From a virus: 33,342 nucleotides of DNA. Positions 1 through 33,342 of the stretch are shown here, piece after piece. Under the pieces are notes generated by a model. It did not search any database and was not told the DNA's origin. It saw nothing but the letters and a program-made list of their open reading frames with translations. The translations under genes and the position numbers were made by a program. Position 1 is the stretch's first letter, and each line of letters starts with the position of its first letter. The stretch lies in the IMG/VR virus record IMGVR_UViG_3300045988_089330; one strand, 5' to 3'.

Positions 1-175
1 TCTTCACGTTCGTGTAGGCGTTCTGGAACATTGTCAAGAACCACGTCGCCACCGTTGAAAGCGCCGTTTTTATGTCCGTCCAACGATCGGAAAACCATTG
101 ACCGATCCCGGAAAAAATACCGGTCACGGCTGTATATGCTTCATTGAACCGATCGGAAAACCACTGACCGACGCC
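1..175 (-). repeat. Continuation of the 120-bp in-frame tandem repeats of the tape measure gene. 1..54 duplicates 33289..33342; the rest is a degenerate copy.
   Basis: 1..54 is identical to 33289..33342. The following ~120 nt keep the GQWFSDRWTDIK / GQWFSDRFNEAY repeat at the protein level. Confidence 0.8.
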
Positions 176-12294: not shown

Positions 12295-13155
12295 TCAATC
12301 GCGCACCATACGCGCATATATATAAAAGCCGTCATTTATGTTATTGATCCTCACTTCCGCGTCAATGAATTTATGATCCGGGTATTTCGCTTTTAGCTGC
12401 CTTTCCAAAAAATCGCGATCCACGGCCATTTTCTCAACGGTCCGTTTTCCGAATTTTGAATAACTCCGGCTGACTTCCGGTTTTTTCAATCCCTTTGACG
12501 CGCTCCAACGCTTCTTCCCCTTCGGATCCTTTGTTATGTATGTGACAAGCCCCGTCAAATGCGTGTCGCTGTCTGGATCAAGCCGCTTTGTCTGCGGGCG
12601 GGTTCCATGTTTCCACATTTTTTCTATTTCGTCCCGGTCACAATCCCCGGAAAAAATAATGTGGTGGTGACAACGGATCTTCCGCTTCGGATCGTCGCTG
12701 TATTCCGTGACATAGATATATTTCAGATTTTCTTTTCCCTCTTTCTTGCGCTTCCGATTTATCCTGCGAATAAAATTCGTGAAGATCCTTTGTGCGTCCT
12801 CTATGTCTGCCGGTAAATGCTCATCATCATAACCGAATGTCCCCCATAAATCCCCGGATCCAAAATTCGCGGCCGTTAATTGATTTAGGTATCTGCGCGC
12901 CCGCCGATCGTTCAAGTTCTTTTGTGAAGGTTTGCTTTCCCGCTTTCGTTTGGTTCGCGGCACGTCTGCCTTCTTCCCAAATGAAGGGTATATGTCGATC
13001 TCAACCTGATTTCCTGCTTTCGTGGTGGTGGTTCGGTAAAGGCTGTTCACCTTCTTTTCCTTCAATAGCCGTTCCAACTCCCATTCTTCCAGTGTGTCGA
13101 TCTGCTTCTGATACGCTTCTTCGTAATCGTAATTGTCATACGTCTTTTTCTTCAT
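12295..13155 (-). CDS. Putative HUH-superfamily rolling-circle replication initiator (Rep)
   Basis: Motif 1-like LWGTFGYDDEHLP (compare TLTYDDEHLP of Microviridae VP4-type Reps), HUH motif YIYVTEY...IRCHHHIIF, and Tyr motif LVTYITKD. Confidence 0.55.
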   Translation of the reverse strand: MKKKTYDNYDYEEAYQKQIDTLEEWELERLLKEKKVNSLYRTTTTKAGNQVEIDIYPSFGKKADVPRTKRKRESKPSQKNLNDRRARRYLNQLTAANFGSGDLWGTFGYDDEHLPADIEDAQRIFTNFIRRINRKRKKEGKENLKYIYVTEYSDDPKRKIRCHHHIIFSGDCDRDEIEKMWKHGTRPQTKRLDPDSDTHLTGLVTYITKDPKGKKRWSASKGLKKPEVSRSYSKFGKRTVEKMAVDRDFLERQLKAKYPDHKFIDAEVRINNINDGFYIYARMVRD

Positions 13156-17930: not shown

Positions 17931-18728
17931 TTAAAATAATGTCAACTGTGTTTCCGGCGCTTGCCGGTTATACCATATAAATTCATGGCGTCTGTGCGCG
18001 TTCTGCGCGTAATTGATCCGTTCTTCCCGCTGCCAATCCTTCAACATATCGTTGTATAAATCCGAAGCATAGCCGGAAATAACCACCGGGCCTTTGTGCT
18101 TCAAAAGTGTTTCCAATAACTCGGCGTGATCCGTGTCGCTCATTTCGTGCCGGTACTGCTTCCCGCGGCGTGTAGAAAGAACATAAGGCGGATCGCAATA
18201 AATCAGCACATTTTCATAATTGAACCGTTTTATTACTTCCACGGCCGGCCGGTTCTCTATCTGTACGCCGCGCAACCGTTCCGCGGCTTCCATGATCTTT
18301 TCCGGTATCTTGCACCACTCCGCGGCGCTGTATGCTTTTTCGCGCCCCTGAATGTCTGCTTTCCACCCGACCTTCTCGCCCGTAGTTCTGAACCCGTGGC
18401 CCATATTCAGACGCACATAGAACAAAACCGCCTTTTCCAAGCTGTCTTCCGGCTCTTTCTGGTAGGCTGCTTCGTATACTTCCCGCGAATACGGTGTGAA
18501 ATAGATTTCATGCGCCAACTTTTCAGGATCGTTCTTTATCCACCGGAAAAGGTTCACCACGTCACCGTCAAGATCGTTTATGGTTTCAATATCCGATCGC
18601 GGTTTGTTGAAGAACACGCCGCCGGAACCGAAGAACGGTTCAACATAGCTATGATGTTTCGGGAAATGTGAAATGATCCATTCAGCCGTTCCCCACTTTG
18701 AACCGGGATATTTCATGATCGCTTTCAT
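17931..18728 (-). CDS. dam: DNA adenine methyltransferase, D12 class (Dam-like)
   Basis: MKYPGSKW....EPFFGSGGVFFN....YCDPPY motifs. The start is set at the ATG at 18728 (ATGA overlap with the upstream stop) rather than the Arg/Gly-rich extension starting at 18860. Confidence 0.88.
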   Translation of the reverse strand: MKAIMKYPGSKWGTAEWIISHFPKHHSYVEPFFGSGGVFFNKPRSDIETINDLDGDVVNLFRWIKNDPEKLAHEIYFTPYSREVYEAAYQKEPEDSLEKAVLFYVRLNMGHGFRTTGEKVGWKADIQGREKAYSAAEWCKIPEKIMEAAERLRGVQIENRPAVEVIKRFNYENVLIYCDPPYVLSTRRGKQYRHEMSDTDHAELLETLLKHKGPVVISGYASDLYNDMLKDWQREERINYAQNAHRRHEFIWYNRQAPETQLTLF

Positions 18729-19198
18729 GCTTCCTTTTCTTCCGTCAAAAGAATGTGTGGCTTGCCTGCGCCTGCTGCCGGTTCTTCCTCTGCTGCCTGC
18801 CGTTCTTCCTCTGCGTCCTTTTCCTCCAGACGCTCCGCGTTCTTTAAAATGATTTCGCAAATCCGGGCTTTCATCAGTTCATCCACGATCCCGACAATGC
18901 GGCTTGCAATCTCCGAAACGCTTTCTTCGTTGTCCCACTCTTTCAGAAGGCGCCGTATTGCTTCCGTAATTACCGTGTATTCGTCCGTTTCGATCTCGAT
19001 CGCGGCTTCCAGTGCTTCTACTTCCTGCGGTTCCTCTTTCTGCCCCGTCACCATTTCCCGTATGTACTCATACGGCACGTTGCAATTAACGCCATTCATC
19101 AGGTTTTCTTTCTGCGCCGCCTGCTTTACAATGTTGAAGAAGTCCGAAAAAGTGACTTCCACCCGATCTTCTCTTGAAAATACGTCTGCCAAACCCAT
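18725..19198 (-). CDS. Hypothetical acidic protein
   Basis: The ATG at 19198 (MGLADVF) is preceded by AAAGGAGATCTGAGAAT. The longer ORF-track version runs into the repeat-rich non-coding region. Confidence 0.55.
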   Translation of the reverse strand: MGLADVFSREDRVEVTFSDFFNIVKQAAQKENLMNGVNCNVPYEYIREMVTGQKEEPQEVEALEAAIEIETDEYTVITEAIRRLLKEWDNEESVSEIASRIVGIVDELMKARICEIILKNAERLEEKDAEEERQAAEEEPAAGAGKPHILLTEEKEA

Positions 19199-19869: not shown

Positions 19870-21036
19870 GTCAAGCGTTAAATGCAAAAAATTTTCGAGG
19901 TTTCCGGCTTCTCCCTTTTTCACAATTTCTATTCAATTTTTTGTGCATATTTCACAATCTGTCATTTATGCCAGTGCTGCCAGTTCTTCGTTGAAGCGTT
20001 CTTCCGCTGTGCCGTAGTCAAACATGGGGCGCGGGTAATTGTTGATCCAGATCTCTATACTTTCCACCGTTCCTTCTGGTAGTGTGTCGAAATCCGTTCC
20101 CTTCGGGACCTGCCGCCGGATCATTCTGTTTTGGTTCTCGTTGGATCCTCTTTCATAACTGCTGTACGGATGGCAATAATATAGTTTTAATCGGCTTCCC
20201 TTCCTACGCGCTGCCTTCTCCAATCCTTCAAAGTCTGCAAACTCCGATCCATTGTCAACGGTGATCGTCTGGAACACTTTATAAAACAGTTTCCCCCACT
20301 TCCTTTCAAGTCTGTTCAGGGCCTTCACCACTTCGGCGGCCGTATGTTTCTTTAACTCCATGATGATTTCTTTCCTTGTCTTCCGTTCTGTCAGTACAAG
20401 AAGTGATTTCTTTGTTTTCCCGCGAAGGCCTAGAACGGTGTCCATTTCCCAATGTCCAAAGGTTTCCCGCGTGTTTATTTCTTCCGGCCGCTTCTCTATG
20501 CTGTCGCCCTTCTGCGCCCGCGCACGACGCACTTTATTATATTTCTTCTTTTCGTCCTTTTTGACCGGCAAATCTTTATTTGTCAGATGAAGAAAGATCC
20601 CTTTGTCAATGTAGTTATAAAGCGTGGGTTTGCTTATCGTGACAGAAAAAGCGATCCCTTTTCTTTTAATCTCGCCCAACACGGCCCCCGGCGAATATTT
20701 TTCATTGATGATCTTGTCTTCAATATATTCTGCCAGTGCAAGGTCATTTCCGATTTTCAGCCCCGGCCCCTTCGCGGCCAAATTCTCCCGATATTTTTCA
20801 TCTGCTATATCCGGGCTATACCGTTCTTCTGTCGTCCAATCTGAATTACGGTGTTCATATCGGCCGCGCTTTAATTCCCGGTATATGGTAGAAATGTGAC
20901 AGCCGATATTATTCGCTATTTCTTCCGGCGTGTGTTTCTCCTTCAAAAGTGCTTCAATCTTTATTCTGTCGTCATGTGTCAGGTGGTGAAAATGTCTCAT
21001 GGTTTGGCTCCTTTCAAAAAAATAACGCCGTGAGCC
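19870..21036 (-). mobile_element. IS30-family element (boundaries tentative)
   Basis: Contains the transposase ORF. The only candidate ends I could find are weak imperfect inverted repeats: tcaagcgttaaat (19871..19883) versus the reverse complement of 21021..21033 (tcacggcgttatt). No clear target-site duplication. Confidence 0.35.
19966..21000 (-). CDS. IS30-family DDE transposase
   Basis: N-terminal HTH (TIYRELKRG) and a DDE core with HWEMDTV, ITVDNGSEFADF and CHPYSSYERGSNENQNRMIRR. Confidence 0.9.
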   Translation of the reverse strand: MRHFHHLTHDDRIKIEALLKEKHTPEEIANNIGCHISTIYRELKRGRYEHRNSDWTTEERYSPDIADEKYRENLAAKGPGLKIGNDLALAEYIEDKIINEKYSPGAVLGEIKRKGIAFSVTISKPTLYNYIDKGIFLHLTNKDLPVKKDEKKKYNKVRRARAQKGDSIEKRPEEINTRETFGHWEMDTVLGLRGKTKKSLLVLTERKTRKEIIMELKKHTAAEVVKALNRLERKWGKLFYKVFQTITVDNGSEFADFEGLEKAARRKGSRLKLYYCHPYSSYERGSNENQNRMIRRQVPKGTDFDTLPEGTVESIEIWINNYPRPMFDYGTAEERFNEELAALA

Positions 21037-21444: not shown

Positions 21445-22434
21445 ATGTTTATTTCTATTGGTATTGACGAAAACGGGCGCCCGTATGTCACCACTTCCGA
21501 CGGATCCGGCGAAAAAATCACGCGGGAAGGCAAAGGAAAAAGCGTTATAGACTTTCCGACTTCCTATACAGTGATCGACATTGAGACAACCGGCCTTGAT
21601 CCGCGGTATTGTGATATTATTGAGATCGCGGCCGTCAAATATTCTTCCGGTCAGAAGGTGGGCGCCTTCTCGACGCTTGTAAAACCGGATGAACCGATCG
21701 ACGAATACATAACCGCACTTACTGGCATAACAAACGATATGTTGAAAAATGCCCCGGATATATCCGAAGGCATACAAAAATTTTATGAGTTTGTCGGTGA
21801 TGATCTTTTAGTCGGCTATAATGTCAATTTTGATATTAACTTTTTGTTTGATAACCTTAAAAGGTGTCATTCGCTTACTTTGTCAAATTCCTTTGTTGAC
21901 GTTATGCGGATCGCCCGGAAGGTCCTTCCGGATCTGAAAAACCATAAGCAAGCCACCGTTGCGGATCATTACGGCGTTTCTGCTTCCGGCGCTCATAGGG
22001 CGGCCGCTGATTGTGAAATATGCCACGCCATTTTTGAGAAGCTGCAGGCGGATATTCTGGCGGCCGGTCAAAGTCTGGATGATTTCAAGGCAGCCACCGG
22101 AAGAAGCGCTCTTCATGCGAAGGATATTTCAACGGAAAAGACTTCGTTTAATACTTCCCACCCGCTTTTCGGTAAAGTGTGCGTATTCACCGGAACCCTT
22201 GAAAAAATGGCCCGCAAAGACGCCATGCAATTAGTCGTTGATTTGGGCGGCTCCGTCGGCGATAACGTCACAAAGAAAACCAACTATTTAATTTTAGGTA
22301 ATAATGATTTTTGCCAATCCATAAAGGACGGCAAAAGCAACAAGCAGAAGAAGGCCGAAGCCCTAATTCTAAAGGGCCATGATATAGAAATACTTTCCGA
22401 AAATGTATTCTATGATCTGGTACTTGAAGCGTAA
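21445..22434 (+). CDS. DEDDh 3'-5' exonuclease (DnaQ/epsilon-like) fused to a C-terminal BRCT domain. This is the only convincing plus-strand gene.
   Basis: VIDIETTGL (Exo I), GYNVNFD (Exo II), HRAAADC (Exo III). C-terminal FGKVCVFTGTL....A..LV..LGGSV...VTKKTNYLILG is BRCT-like, as in LigA. RBS AAGGGGGA. Confidence 0.8.
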   Translation: MFISIGIDENGRPYVTTSDGSGEKITREGKGKSVIDFPTSYTVIDIETTGLDPRYCDIIEIAAVKYSSGQKVGAFSTLVKPDEPIDEYITALTGITNDMLKNAPDISEGIQKFYEFVGDDLLVGYNVNFDINFLFDNLKRCHSLTLSNSFVDVMRIARKVLPDLKNHKQATVADHYGVSASGAHRAAADCEICHAIFEKLQADILAAGQSLDDFKAATGRSALHAKDISTEKTSFNTSHPLFGKVCVFTGTLEKMARKDAMQLVVDLGGSVGDNVTKKTNYLILGNNDFCQSIKDGKSNKQKKAEALILKGHDIEILSENVFYDLVLEA

Positions 22435-25266: not shown

Positions 25267-25515
25267 TCACACTCCCCGCTGTGCTTTCATCTTGTCCAGT
25301 GCTTCGTCAGCTTCGATCGCTGCCTGCGTAAAGCTGTTATTCTTCCACCACGTCACAAGTGACGCGGCCGTGGTAAAGGCGAAAGAAATTACTTCCGTTA
25401 CGGTCTGATCGTCAAACGGAAGCGGGCTTTTTCCTGCGATTGCAAGCGCATTGTTTACAATCGCTAGAAGTAAAACGGCCGTCCTGATGATCGTTTCTTT
25501 CTTAACTTTCTTCAC
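25267..25515 (-). CDS. Holin (SPP1 / phiLC3-like family)
   Basis: 82 aa with two hydrophobic segments and the WWKNNSFT motif typical of this holin family. Immediately upstream of the endolysin. Confidence 0.75.
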   Translation of the reverse strand: MKKVKKETIIRTAVLLLAIVNNALAIAGKSPLPFDDQTVTEVISFAFTTAASLVTWWKNNSFTQAAIEADEALDKMKAQRGV

Positions 25516-25771
25516 TGTGTTTCCCTCTTTCTAAAATAGAAATTCTGTTTTCGTGTTTCTGCAGGATCTTGTCCTGTTCGTCGTTGTGGTCCCATAATCT
25601 TTTATGGCTTTCCCGGTTATGGCCTTTAAAATCTGAAAACTGCTGATCTAACTGTTTGCACGTTGAAGTTAATTCCGTGATCGCCTTTGTCAAGTTTAAG
25701 ATAGGCCGCACAATGACCGCCGCGCCGCCAAGCAACGTGATAAGCATTGTTATAACCTGCCATTCTGACAT
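25502..25771 (-). CDS. BhlA/UviB-like holin-family protein (N-terminal TM plus coiled coil)
   Basis: The hydrophobic segment VITMLITLLGGAAVIV is followed by a charged helical tail. Located in the lysis cassette. Confidence 0.55.
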   Translation of the reverse strand: MSEWQVITMLITLLGGAAVIVRPILNLTKAITELTSTCKQLDQQFSDFKGHNRESHKRLWDHNDEQDKILQKHENRISILERGKHSEES

Positions 25772-25834: not shown

Positions 25835-26866
25835 TCAGGTTGCCTTTCTTTCCTTCAATTCCTTTATGGTTTCCCGCGTGTCCCTGATTAACCGGAACGT
25901 GTCGGCGTGTCCCATGTGTCCGAACCGGCTTTCTATGGAACGATCGAAGTATTCCAATTCTACTTCCCCGGTTTCAAACGCCCGCAATAGTTTCTTTAAG
26001 CGCCGCATGGCCGCTTTGCGGATCTTTTTGTGATCTGCGTAGTGAATATAGCCTACGAAGTTTATTCCGTTCTTTGCGGCTAATATCGTTGTTTTCGGGT
26101 TCAGTTCCAAGCGTAATTCCCGGCGCAAGAAATCTTCTATTTCTGCCAGTATGCGGCGAAGGTGCGCGGGATCCTCCGATAAAATAATAAAATCGTCCAT
26201 ATAACGGACGTAATATTTCAACTTCAATTCATGTTTCACAAACTGATCCAATTTATTTAAATAAACATTTGCGAAAAGCTGTGAAGTCAGATTCCCAACC
26301 GGTATTCCCACGCCCACCGGAAAGATCCCGTTATGGTCTATGATCCGATCAAGGATTTTCAATAATGCTTTGTCGGATATGTAGCGCCGGATCTCCTGCT
26401 TCAATATGTCATGTGAAACGCTCTGGAAATAATGGTGTATATCGCCCTTTATGGCGTATATCTTCTTCCCCTTCACTATTTCCAGATTATAAAGCCACCG
26501 GGAAAGTGTTTCGCTTGCTTCGTGGGCGCCCTTCTTCTGCCTGCAGGCGTAGGAATGGAAAATAAAACGCTTTTCAAAAATCAGTTCAATCAGGTTTACG
26601 ATCATGTGCTGTATCACCCGATCGAAGAACGGAAGCGCCATTATGATCCGTTCCTTTGGCTCCCACACTTTGAAAACGCGGTATTTTCCCGGCTGATAGG
26701 TCCCGTCTTTTAAAGCCTTCACTGCACGAAGTAAATTCGTTTCGCGGTCTGCTTCAAACTCTAAGACTTCCGGCCGGTACCGCTTGCACTTTCTGGCCTT
26801 GTGATATGCTTTCAAGGCGTTTGTGAAAGTGCAGATCTTTTCTATCAAATTTTTAGCTGTCTTCAT
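25835..26866 (-). CDS. Diversity-generating retroelement reverse transcriptase
   Basis: YVRYMDDFIIL (YxDD catalytic motif) and GIPVGNLTSQLFANVYLN (the GxxxSQ signature of DGR RTs). ~340 aa with no maturase or endonuclease domains. Lies next to the TR and avd. Confidence 0.9.
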   Translation of the reverse strand: MKTAKNLIEKICTFTNALKAYHKARKCKRYRPEVLEFEADRETNLLRAVKALKDGTYQPGKYRVFKVWEPKERIIMALPFFDRVIQHMIVNLIELIFEKRFIFHSYACRQKKGAHEASETLSRWLYNLEIVKGKKIYAIKGDIHHYFQSVSHDILKQEIRRYISDKALLKILDRIIDHNGIFPVGVGIPVGNLTSQLFANVYLNKLDQFVKHELKLKYYVRYMDDFIILSEDPAHLRRILAEIEDFLRRELRLELNPKTTILAAKNGINFVGYIHYADHKKIRKAAMRRLKKLLRAFETGEVELEYFDRSIESRFGHMGHADTFRLIRDTRETIKELKERKAT

Positions 26867-27060
26867 GTTCTAAACTTGCCCTACCTCATTTCGCCCCTTC
26901 CGGGTTACTTTCAGGCGGTGCTATTTTACGTTTGTCCGGTATGCCGCCGGAACGGGAACGGCTTTCGCCGTCTTTGCAACCGTCTGACTATATATTGAGA
27001 TTATCCATATATAACCCTTGCCGTGGATCCGGGGATCACGCGGTCTAAAATGCTTTATAA
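26867..27060 (-). ncRNA. DGR spacer region between the TR and the RT gene (expected part of the TR-containing template RNA)
   Basis: Non-coding 194 nt between the TR 3' end and the RT start. Contains local hairpins, for example around ccgtggatccggggatcacgcgg. The role is inferred from the BPP-1 paradigm. Confidence 0.4.
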
Positions 27061-27184
27061 GTCACAGACGCACCAGACGCCAATGTTCGTGTTGACGTTC
27101 CACGGGTAATTGTTGCAATTCACCGCGCGGGAACCGTCGTGAACGCCGTTGTTCCAATTCCCGCCGCCAATCAGCGCGTGAAGG
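27061..27184 (-). repeat. DGR template repeat (TR)
   Basis: 124 bp, 110/124 identical to 27691..27814. All 14 differences are at T on the plus strand, which is A on the transcribed sense. Confidence 0.92.
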
Positions 27185-27212
27185 TGCGAATTAACAGTTG
27201 CCCCAAAATTCT

Positions 27213-27629
27213 TTATTTCTTCTTCGCCTGCTGTACTTCTTTTATCAGGCCGCCGATCATAGCGCCTATTATGCCGGTCTGCTTCGCACAGTATAAATAA
27301 GGCCCGTCGCTTATAGCCGAATAACCTAAATCATGTGCAAGGCGAAGTTTCCGCACAAGCCGCCGTTTCATCCGGTCCGCGGTGTAAAGGTGGCTTGCAA
27401 CCTTCGTGATCTCGTACATTTCGACTTCATCCAAAAGCGCGTCTATGCTCTCCCGTATGTCCTTTTGAAGCGTGAATTTCTCATAATGCGGAAATTTCTT
27501 CAATTTTTCGTGAAGATAAATTGAAAAATCATAGGCTATTTGGTGCGCGTCCGTATGCGTATAATCCATTTCTGCCGTCGCCTGCGCGCTGCCCGTGGCA
27601 CTTTTGCTTCTGCTTTGATAATTTCCCAT
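27213..27629 (-). CDS. avd: DGR accessory variability determinant (Avd, four-helix-bundle family)
   Basis: 138-aa basic helical protein (AHQIAYDFSIYLHEKLKKFP..EKFTLQKDIRESIDALLDEV....A) between the target gene and the TR. Confidence 0.8.
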   Translation of the reverse strand: MGNYQSRSKSATGSAQATAEMDYTHTDAHQIAYDFSIYLHEKLKKFPHYEKFTLQKDIRESIDALLDEVEMYEITKVASHLYTADRMKRRLVRKLRLAHDLGYSAISDGPYLYCAKQTGIIGAMIGGLIKEVQQAKKK

Positions 27630-27652
27630 GTGTCATTCTCCCGGAAGGTTTA

Positions 27653-27675
27653 GGGGCTGCCCTTTCGGGCGCCCC
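27653..27675 (-). promoter_or_regulatory. GC-rich hairpin with a GAAA tetraloop 15 nt 3' of the VR (candidate DGR target-recognition cruciform)
   Basis: The minus strand reads ggggc-gccc-gaaa-gggc-a-gcccc. Confidence 0.6.
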
Positions 27676-27681
27676 TTCTGC

Positions 27682-28794
27682 TTACAGCGCGTCACAGACG
27701 CACCAGACGCCAATGTACGTGTAGACGTTCCACGGGTAACCGTCGCAAGCCACCGCGCGGGAACCGTCGCGAACGCCGCCGCCCCAACGCCCGCCGCCAA
27801 TCAGCGCGTGAAGGGCTGTCGCCGAAGGCATATAAGCGTCACCATACCCGGTTCCAAGTACATCCTGCCACGCCCACGTTGTCGCTGTGGGATCCAAACA
27901 AAATTCGTCAAGCCATTTCCAGACGTTACCCACAAGATCGCGGATATTCAACGCGGAAATAGCGTTCTGAACATATCCCGTTTTCTGCCGTCCGGTGTTT
28001 CCCGTCGCGCTCCATGCGTAGGTATTGTTCCCGTCCTGCCCCTCCGGGCTACCTGCTGCCGCCTGACAAAATTCCGCGTAGGTGGGAAGGCGTTTTCCGA
28101 CGCGTCGGGCCTTCTCGTTTGCGATATACCAGTTAAGGCCCTCCGTTCCGGTGATCGGCGTCGCGTTATATTTGCTCTGCAGGCCGTTGCTTCCATTGTC
28201 GGATGATAAATAAATATCGCCCCACAATCCATTCCCCAAGTAAACCATACCGGAAGGATCGTCGCACTTCGGACGGTGCTTTGTTGTCCATACGCTGTTC
28301 GGCACAATTCCCGTATACACATTTCCTTCCCAACCGCTGCCGTTTTCCGTCCCGCTGCTGCTGATCGGGTTTCCGCTTGCGTTTACGCGCCTTACGATCC
28401 CGTAATGGAAGCCGCCCACTTTGCGGCTGTTCTCTGCTGTGTACCCGGAAGGATAGGTGGAATTTTTAGAAATCACAAAAATTTCATCCTGATCCAATGT
28501 TTCGGAACCGTTGGAAGGATCACAACAATAAATATAATAATCGCTGCCCTTCTCAAATCCGCTTCCAGTGTCAAGGTTCGCGGCGGTCAAGTTGGTTAAG
28601 GTGGTTTCAAAAATTGACGGCCCGACGGCGATTATCACGCCTGCGGCGATCGTTACCTGATCGGGCGACGCGGAACCGGCGGCGGTGATATACTGCGCCT
28701 TCTGCGCCACAATGTCGCCCATAGCTGACAACTTCGCCGTGGTGATCTTTGCCTTCGTGTTCATCATGGTTTCGTCATAAAGAAAAAATTTCAT
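27682..28794 (-). CDS. DGR target protein: putative receptor-binding (tail fibre tip) protein with a C-terminal C-type lectin / FGE-sulfatase-fold variable domain
   Basis: LNWYIANEKARRVGKRLPTYAEF......RDLVGNVWKWLDEF is FGE/CLec-like. The VR encodes the last ~40 aa (...GGGRWGGGVRDGSRAVACDGYPWNVYTYIGVWCVCDAL). Confidence 0.85.
   Translation of the reverse strand: MKFFLYDETMMNTKAKITTAKLSAMGDIVAQKAQYITAAGSASPDQVTIAAGVIIAVGPSIFETTLTNLTAANLDTGSGFEKGSDYYIYCCDPSNGSETLDQDEIFVISKNSTYPSGYTAENSRKVGGFHYGIVRRVNASGNPISSSGTENGSGWEGNVYTGIVPNSVWTTKHRPKCDDPSGMVYLGNGLWGDIYLSSDNGSNGLQSKYNATPITGTEGLNWYIANEKARRVGKRLPTYAEFCQAAAGSPEGQDGNNTYAWSATGNTGRQKTGYVQNAISALNIRDLVGNVWKWLDEFCLDPTATTWAWQDVLGTGYGDAYMPSATALHALIGGGRWGGGVRDGSRAVACDGYPWNVYTYIGVWCVCDAL
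27691..27814 (-). repeat. DGR variable repeat (VR) at the 3' end of the target gene
   Basis: See TR. Substitutions at 27717, 27723, 27740, 27741, 27744, 27749, 27750, 27770, 27779, 27780, 27782, 27783, 27788 and 27789. Confidence 0.92.
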
Positions 28795-29302: not shown

Positions 29303-30370
29303 TTAATTTTGTGATGATACATAGGCGCCCACATAGCCGCCCACGGCTGCGAAAGCGTTCTTGTCGTAAATACTGAATGTAACCGTTTCCGTTGTCTTCG
29401 TATGGTCCAGAACGAAGGTTTTCGGGATAATGTTCAAGGTGTCGCTTTGTGCTTCCACCGTGTATTCTCCCGGCTCCGTCAGATAGGTTTTTCCCTCTGC
29501 CGAATATGTAACCGTCGTTTTGTTCCCGCTGTCCTTGTTTATAATGTCGATCAGGATCACGCCGGTTTCCTTTGACAGATTTTCAAACATTACTTTCGTT
29601 GCAAGATTTTTTATGTGGGCCGTCAAATCGTTCACGGCGTTCTGCAAGGCTCCGGCGGCGTCTTCGGATAACTGATCCTTTATCCCTTCAAACCACGCGG
29701 TAAAGACCGCCTGCTGCTGCTGTGAATAGCTTTCAAACTGGCTTTCCATATCCCGAAGGGCGGCGGCGCCTTTATCCTCTAAATTGACGATCTGCGCCAT
29801 GTAGGAATTAAATTCCTGCGTTATACTGGCCTGATAGCGTGTGAAGTACGCCTGAAACTGCGCCGTGACCTGCGAAAAGTCAATTTCCTTTACCGTCGCC
29901 ATAACCCAACCGCAAACGTCGCTGTTCATGCGCGTGTCGGTGATGTTCTCCTGCGTGATCTTAATCGCGCCCACATCCACATATATTTCGGCCAATTTCA
30001 GATCGTGGACCGCTTCGCTTCTCACAATCTCCGGCGCCGTGGGATTTTTGGAAAAGCCGCCGGTTTCAATGAAAATATAAAAATCCCTTTCGGTATCATC
30101 CCGACGCAAGATCACGTTGTCGATCCGGGCCAGTGTTCCTGACGCCTTTTCAAGCGTGAAGATCTGCGCCTGTTCAAAATGCTTTGTCTTCCCGTTGATA
30201 TTTACATATCCCCCTGCGACGGTTACGGTCATATCGTCGTTTGCTGTGATCGCAAAACAATTATTGAAAACGCCCGTTGTGAAGAATGGTAAAAGCCATT
30301 CGCTCATGCTGTCCGCATTATAAACGCGGTCCCCATTTCTGGAATTATAGAAGTTTGCATACTGTCCCAT
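29303..30370 (-). CDS. Putative tail fibre / baseplate-attached structural protein
   Basis: The N-terminal pattern NGDRVYNADSMSEWLLPFFTTGVF....V..G...ING........RID.VILR.D...R......ITDTR....CGWV is common at the N-termini of Gram-positive siphophage fibre or upper-baseplate proteins. Follows Tal. Confidence 0.55.
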   Translation of the reverse strand: MGQYANFYNSRNGDRVYNADSMSEWLLPFFTTGVFNNCFAITANDDMTVTVAGGYVNINGKTKHFEQAQIFTLEKASGTLARIDNVILRRDDTERDFYIFIETGGFSKNPTAPEIVRSEAVHDLKLAEIYVDVGAIKITQENITDTRMNSDVCGWVMATVKEIDFSQVTAQFQAYFTRYQASITQEFNSYMAQIVNLEDKGAAALRDMESQFESYSQQQQAVFTAWFEGIKDQLSEDAAGALQNAVNDLTAHIKNLATKVMFENLSKETGVILIDIINKDSGNKTTVTYSAEGKTYLTEPGEYTVEAQSDTLNIIPKTFVLDHTKTTETVTFSIYDKNAFAAVGGYVGAYVSSQN

Positions 30371-32287: not shown

Positions 32288-33342
32288 TTAAACGCCCCCT
32301 TGTATCTGTAATACTATTTGCCGCGTCGCGTTTCTGGTCTGTCTGGCCGTCTCATACGGGGAAAGTTCCTTCGGGCTTGTAATGTTCACGTTCTGGACAA
32401 AACTTCGCGCCTGCTGCCCCGTGGCCGCGTCAAGCGCGGTATTTTTCGCGCTTCTGGTTAATGGCGTCACAATCGCTTCACCGTTCACCATTTGGATCAA
32501 CTCCGGCCCCGCTTCTGCCATGATCGCTTGACCGTTCTTCAAAATACCGCCTTTTGCCAGACGTGGAAGTGATACGGTTCCCACATGGCCCACGCTTACG
32601 CCCGGAAGTTTATTGATAACGTCAATCGCGCCGTTTATAAGTCCGATCGCGCCGTTTATTGCGTTCTCTACTGTTGCGATCGCGCTGTTTATCGCAGTTT
32701 TGAAGGCGCCGCCGATCGCGTTTCCTATATTAGTTCCTACATTCGTAAATACGCCCTTTATACTCGACCATATTCCAGAAAAAAATGTACCTATATTTGA
32801 AAACACGTTCTTTATGTTTGTGTACGCTTCATTGAATTTCGTTTGGAACCATGTTCCCACTGCCGAAAATACGTTTTTTATATCCGTCCAACGTGCCGAA
32901 AACCACTGACCGATCGCCGCAAAAACATTCTTCACGTTTGTGTAGGCGTTCTGGAACATTGTCAAGAACCACGTCGCCACCGTCGCAAGTGCCGTTTTTA
33001 TGTCCGTCCAACGGGCGCCGAACCACTGGCCGATCGCCGAAAAGACGTTCTTCACGTTCGTGTAGGCGTTCTGGAACATTGTCAAGAACCACGTCGCCAC
33101 CGTCGCAAGTGCCGTTTTTATGTCCGTCCAACGGGCGCCGAACCACTGGCCGATCGCCGAAAAGACGTTCTTCACGTTCGTGTAGGCGTTCTGGAACATT
33201 GTCAAGAACCACGTCGCCACTGTTGAAAGCGCCGTTTTTATGTCCGTCCAACGGGCGCCGAACCACTGGCCAATCGCCGCAAAAACATTCTTCACGTTCG
33301 TGTAGGCGTTCTGGAACATTGTCAAGAACCACGTCGCCACCG
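32288..33342 (-). CDS. Tail tape measure protein, C-terminal part (open at the right window edge)
   Basis: Repeats ATWFLTMFQNAYTNVKNVF.AIGQWFGARWTDIKTAL.TV, then a Gly/Ala-rich region and the C-terminus. It is in frame with 1..1975 when the 54-nt terminal overlap is merged. The combined length is about 990 aa. Confidence 0.88.
   Translation of the reverse strand, partial: VATWFLTMFQNAYTNVKNVFAAIGQWFGARWTDIKTALSTVATWFLTMFQNAYTNVKNVFSAIGQWFGARWTDIKTALATVATWFLTMFQNAYTNVKNVFSAIGQWFGARWTDIKTALATVATWFLTMFQNAYTNVKNVFAAIGQWFSARWTDIKNVFSAVGTWFQTKFNEAYTNIKNVFSNIGTFFSGIWSSIKGVFTNVGTNIGNAIGGAFKTAINSAIATVENAINGAIGLINGAIDVINKLPGVSVGHVGTVSLPRLAKGGILKNGQAIMAEAGPELIQMVNGEAIVTPLTRSAKNTALDAATGQQARSFVQNVNITSPKELSPYETARQTRNATRQIVLQIQGGV
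32821..33342 (-). repeat. 120-bp (40-codon) in-frame tandem repeats in the tape measure gene; two copies are identical
   Basis: 32941..33060 is identical to 33061..33180. 33181..33300 differs at about 10 positions. 32821..32940 is more diverged. The array continues across the window junction. Confidence 0.9.

Follow-up and report, generated by a model that had tools for sequence, protein, structure and literature searches.

A diversity-generating retroelement of the BPP-1 (Mtd) type, very probably active, in the circular genome of a human-gut phage

Phage-borne diversity-generating retroelements (DGRs) that diversify receptor-binding proteins of the Mtd and C-type-lectin (CLec) kind have been known since BPP-1, a Rauchvirus with a Bordetella host. 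In the BPP-1 genome (NC_005357) the local order is tail fibre, mtd, avd, template repeat (TR), brt, small open reading frames (ORFs) and endolysin, with the variable repeat (VR) at the extreme 3' end of the target gene. Phage DGRs are common, or enriched, in gut phages (PMC8144416, PMC8008677), and those of gut Clostridia phages and prophages, such as the Eubacterium rectale prophage, the Faecalibacterium phage Lagaffe and the Clostridium phage Saumur, are likewise phage-borne, with the target in the tail module and with gut Firmicutes as hosts. Here we analyse the IMG/VR virus record IMGVR_UViG_3300045988_089330, of 33,342 nt, with "the window" denoting this whole stretch of DNA. We hold it very probable that the window carries a complete and currently active DGR of the BPP-1 (Mtd) type, in a circular, siphovirus-like human-gut phage of ~33.3 kb whose host probably belongs to the Lachnospiraceae or to a related Clostridia lineage.

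The local arrangement in the window is that of BPP-1. All the parts lie on the minus strand, to which the coordinates below refer unless stated otherwise, in the order target gene with VR, avd, TR and reverse transcriptase (RT) gene: the target ORF at 28794..27682 (370 aa), the Avd-like ORF at 27629..27213 (138 aa), the TR at 27184..27061 and the RT ORF at 26866..25835 (343 aa), with a 194-nt spacer (Sp, 26867..27060) between TR and RT. An earlier reading of the window, made from its letters and ORFs alone (the sequence-only reading), had placed four DGR parts on one strand in the BPP-1 order, and the ORFs together with the repeat bear this out, all its coordinates being right. The 124-bp template repeat that it claimed is a 124-nt direct repeat (27061-27184 / 27691-27814), the sole long direct repeat in the region, with 89% identity between the copies; in BPP-1 the TR has 134 nt, and both TRs are AAY-rich. 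The VR (27814..27691, 124 nt) encodes residues 328-368 of the target and ends 6 nt before its stop codon, again at the extreme 3' end as in BPP-1. The two copies differ at 14 positions and all 14 are among the 26 adenines of the TR (hypergeometric P 8.9e-12), altering nine codons, eight of them AAY and one CAC. Nine codons of the TR are AAY and another eight contain one A, and a stop codon can be reached from none of them, giving a theoretical repertoire of ~10^15.4 proteins. TR and VR agree throughout their final 23 nt, and after ...GTGAC the sequences part at once, with GCGCTG in the VR and TTATAA in the TR. A search for a second VR within the window found none.

The evidence that bears most directly on activity comes from natural populations. 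The exact RT protein is listed in 328 blocks of a public assembly collection, and the sources, both for the records with a stated source and for the related contigs, are human gut metagenomes. With the relatives gathered by exact-protein look-up and degenerate peptide scans, seven human-gut metagenome contigs were read in which the RT and the TR are both identical to those of the window. Over 9 kb, one of them (L004, 33,294 nt) is the same as the window. The remaining six have 12-20 differences from the window in 7.3-9.0 kb (for L006 the terminal ~50 nt, which diverge outright, are not counted), and 11-16 of these differences fall within the 124-nt VR, with the flanking DNA of the contigs having 1-7 differences each in 7-9 kb. 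Taking the window and the seven contigs together, the VR varies in the columns of 24 of the 26 TR adenines and in none of the 98 non-A columns, so that the heterogeneity restricted to TR adenines that the sequence-only reading had proposed to look for is found between samples, at 24 of 24 variable columns. Six distinct VRs are present among the seven contigs, and the ~7.5 kb outside the VR have 11 variable sites in all. A- and VR-restricted variation between natural populations is what these sequences display. Such variation beside near-identical flanks argues that the element is active, and six VRs against so few flank differences imply that the VR turns over much faster than the background diverges.

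The same pattern recurs at the protein level and in other lineages. There are 192 distinct proteins in the 90% identity cluster of the target, and among the 15 that were read the AAY-encoded residues 336, 338, 339, 349, 351, 352, 358 and 360 each take 6-8 different amino acids, with just scattered two- or three-state differences in the rest of the protein. In two cluster members, P0122 and P0129, residue 343 is Cys, where the GAC codon of the window TR yields Ala, Asp, Gly or Val only; the TR probably differs in those strains. In sister lineages, for which groups of 18, 11 and 8 TR-sharing metagenome contigs were available, every VR is different within its group, and 618 of the 629 TR-to-VR mismatches lie at A. 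Among the 20 closest GTDB relatives examined (L008-L027), the VR-avd-TR-RT layout with A-only mismatches is present in 19. It is noted that an exact 35-nt TR pattern gave 0 matches in IMG/VR viral contigs and 0 in JGI metagenome contigs; the identical RT is present in the ENA/Logan/JGI protein-position index despite this null result, that index also having an entry from JGI for the contig of window length (33342 nt), and the collections evidently do not fully overlap.

By pairwise and profile scores the RT belongs to the DGR clade. It has 36% identity to BPP-1 Brt over 325 residues (4e-64), it matches the RVT_1 profile at 5.2e-23 and PHROG 1423 at 5e-127, and its best match in the PDB is bRT of BPP-1 (8ub7_A, 1.5e-56, 195 bits), whereas the group II intron and retron RTs in the PDB reach at most 68 bits (~1e-17). 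The RT also lies below every NCBIfam cut-off for the group II, retron, DRT and Abi families. The sequence-only reading had described a 343-aa RT with YMDD and GNLTSQ motifs and had named the RVT_1 profile and a grouping with DGR RTs, rather than with retron, group II intron or Abi RTs, as the checks to be made, and these results agree with it on each point. The YMDD motif occupies residues 222-225 and VGNLTSQ, of the (I/L/V)GxxxSQ type, residues 190-196, and an alignment reading has the catalytic residues D142, D224 and D225 conserved. In the cryo-electron microscopy structure of bRT, the residues K29, F66, R74, I76, G182 and Q187 make template or deoxynucleotide contacts (bioRxiv 10.1101/2023.10.23.563531). 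By the same alignment reading, the equivalents of these six are kept in the window RT, and bRT I181 is replaced by V190.

The target protein (27682..28794) is, judging from profile matches and a predicted structure, a full-length homologue of the Mtd family with the VR in a C-terminal fold of the CLec or formylglycine-generating enzyme (FGE) kind. Its residues 41-156 correspond to the Mtd second domain, with the Pfam profile mtd_2nd (PF21916) matched at 3.6e-32 and 111.5 bits (cut-off 24.6) and FGE-sulfatase at 5.2e-07. With phmmer it aligns to the Mtd structure 1yu0 over residues 37-369 (7.6e-17), and with BLASTP it has 30% identity to BPP-1 Mtd (5e-29). The AlphaFold2 model has a mean confidence (pLDDT) of 93.6, and in the Foldseek search with this model five Mtd crystal structures come first, at a template-modelling (TM) score of 0.70 and E ~1e-22 (the top one at 3e-23) over 385 columns, followed by TaqVP, TvpA and then FGE-like enzymes. 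The C-terminal C-type-lectin/FGE-like domain claimed from the sequence is thereby backed both by the Pfam FGE-sulfatase match and by the model, and the proposed comparison of the predicted structure with Mtd and TvpA puts Mtd at the top with TvpA also matched. TvpA (2y3c) and TaqVP (5vf4) resemble the target in that their VR, too, lies in a C-terminal CLec/FGE-like fold (Foldseek E 1.8e-06 to 5e-05); they differ from it in that the C-terminal domain alone is shared (TM 0.30-0.36), being bacterial surface proteins without the Mtd second domain. The position of the gene at the end of the tail module suggests, by analogy, that the predicted receptor-binding protein would sit as a trimer at the tip of a tail fibre and bind the host receptor there, and changes of its VR would then drive a switch of tropism.

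Profile matches, the predicted fold and the place of its gene assign the 138-aa protein to the Avd type, as a basic four-helix bundle of divergent sequence. It is too divergent from BPP-1 Avd for pairwise detection: BLASTP against BPP-1 Avd and phmmer against the PDB, both with the single sequence, returned nothing, so that the assignment called for a profile of the family and a structure prediction. The PHROG profile annotated as the Avd protein of DGRs is the best in PHROGs, at 7.2e-16, bAvd is the best Pfam match, at 1.8e-09 (38.5 bits, just short of the cut-off of 40), and DivGenRetAVD is the best NCBIfam match, well under its cut-off; most of the homologues listed have a bAvd domain. The best PDB matches of the family profile are Avd 4dwl (1.9e-4) and 8ub7_B. 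The AlphaFold2 model consists of four helices, and every one of its top 21 Foldseek matches is a member of the Avd/2gsc/2rld family, with TM scores (normalised to the target) of 0.78-0.92 and root-mean-square deviations of 1.1-2.4 Å, those against Avd structures being 1.7-2.1 Å. The basic, helical, Avd-like protein of the sequence-only reading, for which a four-helix bundle had been suggested as the check, thus finds support in the PHROG match, the family profile, the model with its Foldseek matches and an isoelectric point of 9.06.

Besides these genes, the window has a target-site element that was absent from the sequence-only reading. A hairpin or cruciform, AGGGGCGCCC-GAAA-GGGC(A)GCCCCT (27652..27676), starts 15 nt past the VR; it is GC-rich, with a stem of 9-10 bp (core GGGGCGCCC-GAAA-GGGC(A)GCCCC, 27675..27653) and a GAAA loop, and its DNA fold has z = -2.9, with 0 of 200 shuffles equally stable. 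BPP-1 also has a GC-rich hairpin with a GAAA loop past its VR, and Guo et al. found that the hairpin/cruciform is needed for BPP-1 retrohoming (PMC3240598). The published phage DGR hairpins have a GC-rich stem of 7-10 bp, a 4-nt GRNA loop and a distance of 4-34 bp from the VR (PMC3240598), which the window hairpin fits in stem, loop and distance. In relatives the same site has other stem sequences with the pairing kept and the loop always GAAA or GGAA; the target hairpin thus covaries. The difference from BPP-1 is a bulged A (27657) in the 3' arm, four base pairs from the loop, which is also present in L010, L011, L012, L017, L018 and L019 despite their differing stems and is not present in L013, L016 and L025. 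We also considered whether this hairpin might be an intrinsic terminator and rejected the idea, since the hairpin has no T-tract behind it and is not called by the terminator scan.

We now turn to the RNA elements around the TR, for which BPP-1 provides a detailed reference. In BPP-1, Sp47-70 reads TAGGTGGTCA-GC-CGGTTCTGTCCT, in which A56 primes the cDNA, and the "cPRT Stop" is a duplex of Sp59-70 with avd 369-379 (Handa et al., bioRxiv 10.1101/2023.10.23.563531). The counterpart in the window is TATAGTCA-GA-CGGTTGC, then an inserted hairpin, then CCC, so that the motif GTCA-NN-CGGTT is common to the window and BPP-1 Sp53-63. The window spacer has 194 nt, versus 144 nt in BPP-1, and is conserved in blocks among relatives with RTs 50-83% identical. 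Reading along it from the TR, a stem-loop lies directly 3' of the TR (27043..27021), where BPP-1 has its Avd-binding stem-loop; it covaries strongly: at two of its pairs, both partners have changed in six sequences each time. Between this Avd-binding-like stem-loop and the primer motif AGTCA (26989..26985) there is an extra AT-rich hairpin. Then comes the spacer strand of the duplex, CGGTTGC...CCC (26982..26976 and 26956..26954), which is split by the inserted hairpin AAAGACGGC-GAAA-GCCGTT (26975..26957). A short stem-loop (26951..26935) and an A-rich run (26934..26922) follow the duplex strand, as in BPP-1.

The upstream strand of the duplex, GGGGCAACTGT (27194..27204), lies 10-20 nt upstream of the TR and pairs with CGGTTGC..CCC over a long range, enclosing the TR in the same way as the avd:Sp duplex does in BPP-1. 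It sits in the 28-nt intergenic gap between avd and TR, whereas the BPP-1 strand is inside avd. For eight lineages and BPP-1, with the strands extracted by hand and the insertions and bulges removed, a procedure that leans towards the model, 99 of 99 cells are paired, with compensatory changes in 7 of 11 pairs; none of 500 shuffles does as well, and registers slid by 1-3 columns are at most 50% paired. Two sequences were left out of this count: in L104 the spacer duplex strand (ACGGGGCGCCC) no longer pairs with its upstream strand, and in L115 the upstream GGGG is one G short, which could reflect degenerate elements or assembly errors. The inserted GAAA-capped hairpin is present in the window and its 82-87% relatives, a longer insert is present in L010 and L114, and the other lineages have a continuous strand. 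The local GACGG/CCGTT hairpin that RNAalifold gives on a MAFFT spacer alignment was rejected, since it has no covariation, whereas the long-range duplex covaries and matches BPP-1.

The AGTCA motif is complementary to the last bases of the TR (TGAC|T). From this complementarity and from the identity of the motif with that of BPP-1 we predict, by analogy, that the A at 26985, the equivalent of BPP-1 Sp A56, primes the cDNA and that the first templated base is the G at 27065. The TR adenine A123 (27062), which lies inside the predicted primer duplex, is invariant in the 7 DNA and 15 protein variants, which is consistent with the predicted priming site. An alternative primer duplex, between the spacer GCACCGCC and the TR GGCG..GGTGC, fails in L011, L012 and L025, and BPP-1 favours AGTCA; RNAduplex on long segments was noisy and served as a lead only. 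It is noted that conservation of the RNA elements across phyla, Bacillota included, has already been reported (bioRxiv 10.1101/2023.10.23.563531). That the BPP-1 priming motif and Stop duplex are kept over the phylogenetic distance to the window supports a general cis-priming mechanism.

With these elements the following pathway can be proposed. A transcript would span the avd-TR intergenic region, the TR and the 194-nt spacer, and in its fold the upstream strand would pair with the spacer strand to enclose the TR, with AGTCA pairing with the final TR bases. The RT-Avd complex would then prime the cDNA in cis from the terminal A of the motif and copy the TR towards its 5' end, with misincorporation opposite adenines. 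We infer the end points of the cDNA, with synthesis halting at the upstream:spacer duplex. At the 3' end of the mtd-like gene the VR would then be exchanged for the mutagenised cDNA, which the TR/VR homology and the GAAA-capped GC-rich hairpin past the VR would direct to this site. The outcome would be a CLec-fold protein whose ligand-binding face, varied at 17 codons, could take up to ~10^15 forms, which may allow the phage to track changes of the receptor.

Several points weigh against a complete and active DGR and have to be set beside the evidence above. The Avd candidate reaches neither of the two curated cut-offs, Pfam or NCBIfam, and pairwise comparison with BPP-1 Avd finds no similarity. 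Unlike BPP-1, the window has no recognisable IMH/IMH* (initiation of mutagenic homing) difference between TR and VR, and the direction of transfer may rest on the flanks and the hairpin. The hand extraction of the duplex strands belongs here as well, and the VR comparison, made between samples, shows diversification over population history and gives no rate. This last point, together with the single TR/VR pair that the window alone offers, speaks for a relic, that is, a cassette that is intact but has lost mobilisation, its VR differences dating from an earlier active period. We give this a very slight chance: contigs identical in RT and TR, with their few flank differences, have six VRs that are off the window at 11-16 positions, the target cluster holds its 192 distinct proteins, and the catalytic and template-contacting residues of the RT are conserved. 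To another explanation, in which ordinary diversifying selection or recombination makes the VR hypervariable and the RT is an unrelated group II, retron or Abi/DRT element, we give virtually no credence. It is true that diversifying selection is common at receptor-binding tips and that the best NCBIfam match of the RT is a group II intron RT/maturase, at 139 bits under a cut-off of 300. But on that explanation one would have to account for variation that falls, in 24 of 24 columns, on the A positions of an invariant second copy 630 nt off and in none of the 98 others, and for a TR/VR pair in 19 of the 20 closest GTDB relatives examined. The bit scores of bRT against group II and retron RTs and the VGxxxSQ motif also oppose it; moreover, there is no intron RNA, no msr/msd and no maturase or endonuclease domain, and the Rfam scan of the whole window finds no family, Rfam apparently having no matching DGR RNA model.

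A further alternative accepts the active DGR and concerns what the diversified protein does: rather than serving as the adhesin for the host receptor, it might recognise a different ligand (mucus glycans or some other surface, for example), or it might act in the lysogen. DGR targets outside the structural modules are known in gut phages (PMC8008677). We nevertheless regard this as highly unlikely, since the target is a full-length homologue of Mtd, the receptor-binding protein of BPP-1, and since its gene ends the tail/baseplate module, after Dit, Tal-like and structural genes, and precedes the lysis genes, as in BPP-1.

The active DGR of the BPP-1 type being preferred, one may ask whether it departs from the BPP-1 paradigm in more than sequence. 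With the extra AT-rich hairpin, the hairpin within the Stop duplex strand and the bulged A of the target hairpin, this Lachnospiraceae-phage lineage would depart structurally from the paradigm, in its DGR RNA as well as in its target site. The five non-identical contigs read, one per sample, have five distinct VRs, and the phage could therefore be a natural marker of personal phage-host co-evolution; both suggestions are tentative and we think them rather unlikely. If the extra hairpins or the bulged A are functional, the positioning of the ribonucleoprotein or the recognition of the target could change.

Among deposited phages, megablast with the cassette finds no nucleotide match, and the best RT identity is 43.6%, to the Bacillus phage BalMu-1; the DGR-clade RTs of gut Clostridia phages have 37-41% identity to the window RT (tblastn). 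A DGR with a GRNA hairpin was listed for the E. rectale prophage in 2011 (PMC3240598, Fig. 5). The closest relatives of the window are unannotated prophages in Lachnospiraceae/Clostridiales genomes and metagenome-assembled genomes, with RTs 82-83% identical; one at 83% is in the Lachnospiraceae genome MGYG-HGUT-00092 (CABIZF01), and ERZ914168/ERR1293855 is among the samples in which the phage itself is present. The lack of a nucleotide match among deposited phages, with the best RT there at 44%, and the known class of the DGR make the element a further example of its class, with no new principle. Its practical value is that of a small, complete and gut-prevalent phage with clear natural DGR activity, which might become a model for tropism switching in Gram-positive gut anaerobes or a compact DGR chassis. 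The host assignment given above is drawn from these prophage relatives and from the lysis genes of the Gram-positive type.

Upstream of the DGR lie the genes for Dit, a minor tail protein of the Sipho_Gp37 type and two structural proteins. The sequence-only reading had the DGR follow Dit, Tal and fibre genes, of which Dit and a Tal-like protein stand; for the "fibre" label, given to a 355-aa protein (30370..29303), no support turned up, PHROGs assigning this protein to "virion structural protein" or "head protein" and both Pfam and the PDB returning no match. The 347-aa upstream protein likewise had no match in the PDB search. Downstream come an SPP1-type holin and then a glucosaminidase/amidase endolysin; an 89-aa protein (phrog_1009, 25502-25771) is encoded between the RT gene and the holin gene, whose start it overlaps, at the place where BPP-1 has two small ORFs between brt and endolysin.

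The two ends of the window (1-54 and 33289-33342) overlap directly by 54 bp, and the junction lies within a 1010-aa tape-measure-like ORF on the minus strand, so that the window is a circular assembly and a complete genome of ~33.29 kb. A 350-aa "ORF" at 32288..33340 is just the C-terminal part of this junction-spanning ORF. The genome also encodes TerL, a portal protein and a capsid protein of the HK97 type. In being siphovirus-like, in having a long tape-measure gene and in its host, probably a Gram-positive gut Clostridia member, the phage differs from BPP-1. It is also found within contigs of 102-128 kb, which makes integration in part of the samples probable. A scan of the 10 larger ORFs gave neither a tyrosine nor a serine integrase; a 344-aa protein (19966-21000, minus strand) with HTH_38 and an rve integrase core has the architecture of an IS30-like transposase and could be the phage integrase or belong to an inserted insertion-sequence element.

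Finally, we note some genes elsewhere in the window. Just past the lysis genes, on the plus strand (21445-22434), a 329-aa protein fuses an RNase_T (DnaQ-like) exonuclease to a C-terminal BRCT domain. On the minus strand are a replication-associated protein of the REP_ORF2-G2P type (12295-13155) and a D12-class N6-adenine DNA methyltransferase (17931-18860), for neither of which a link to the DGR is implied; an adenine methylase is also encoded by BPP-1.

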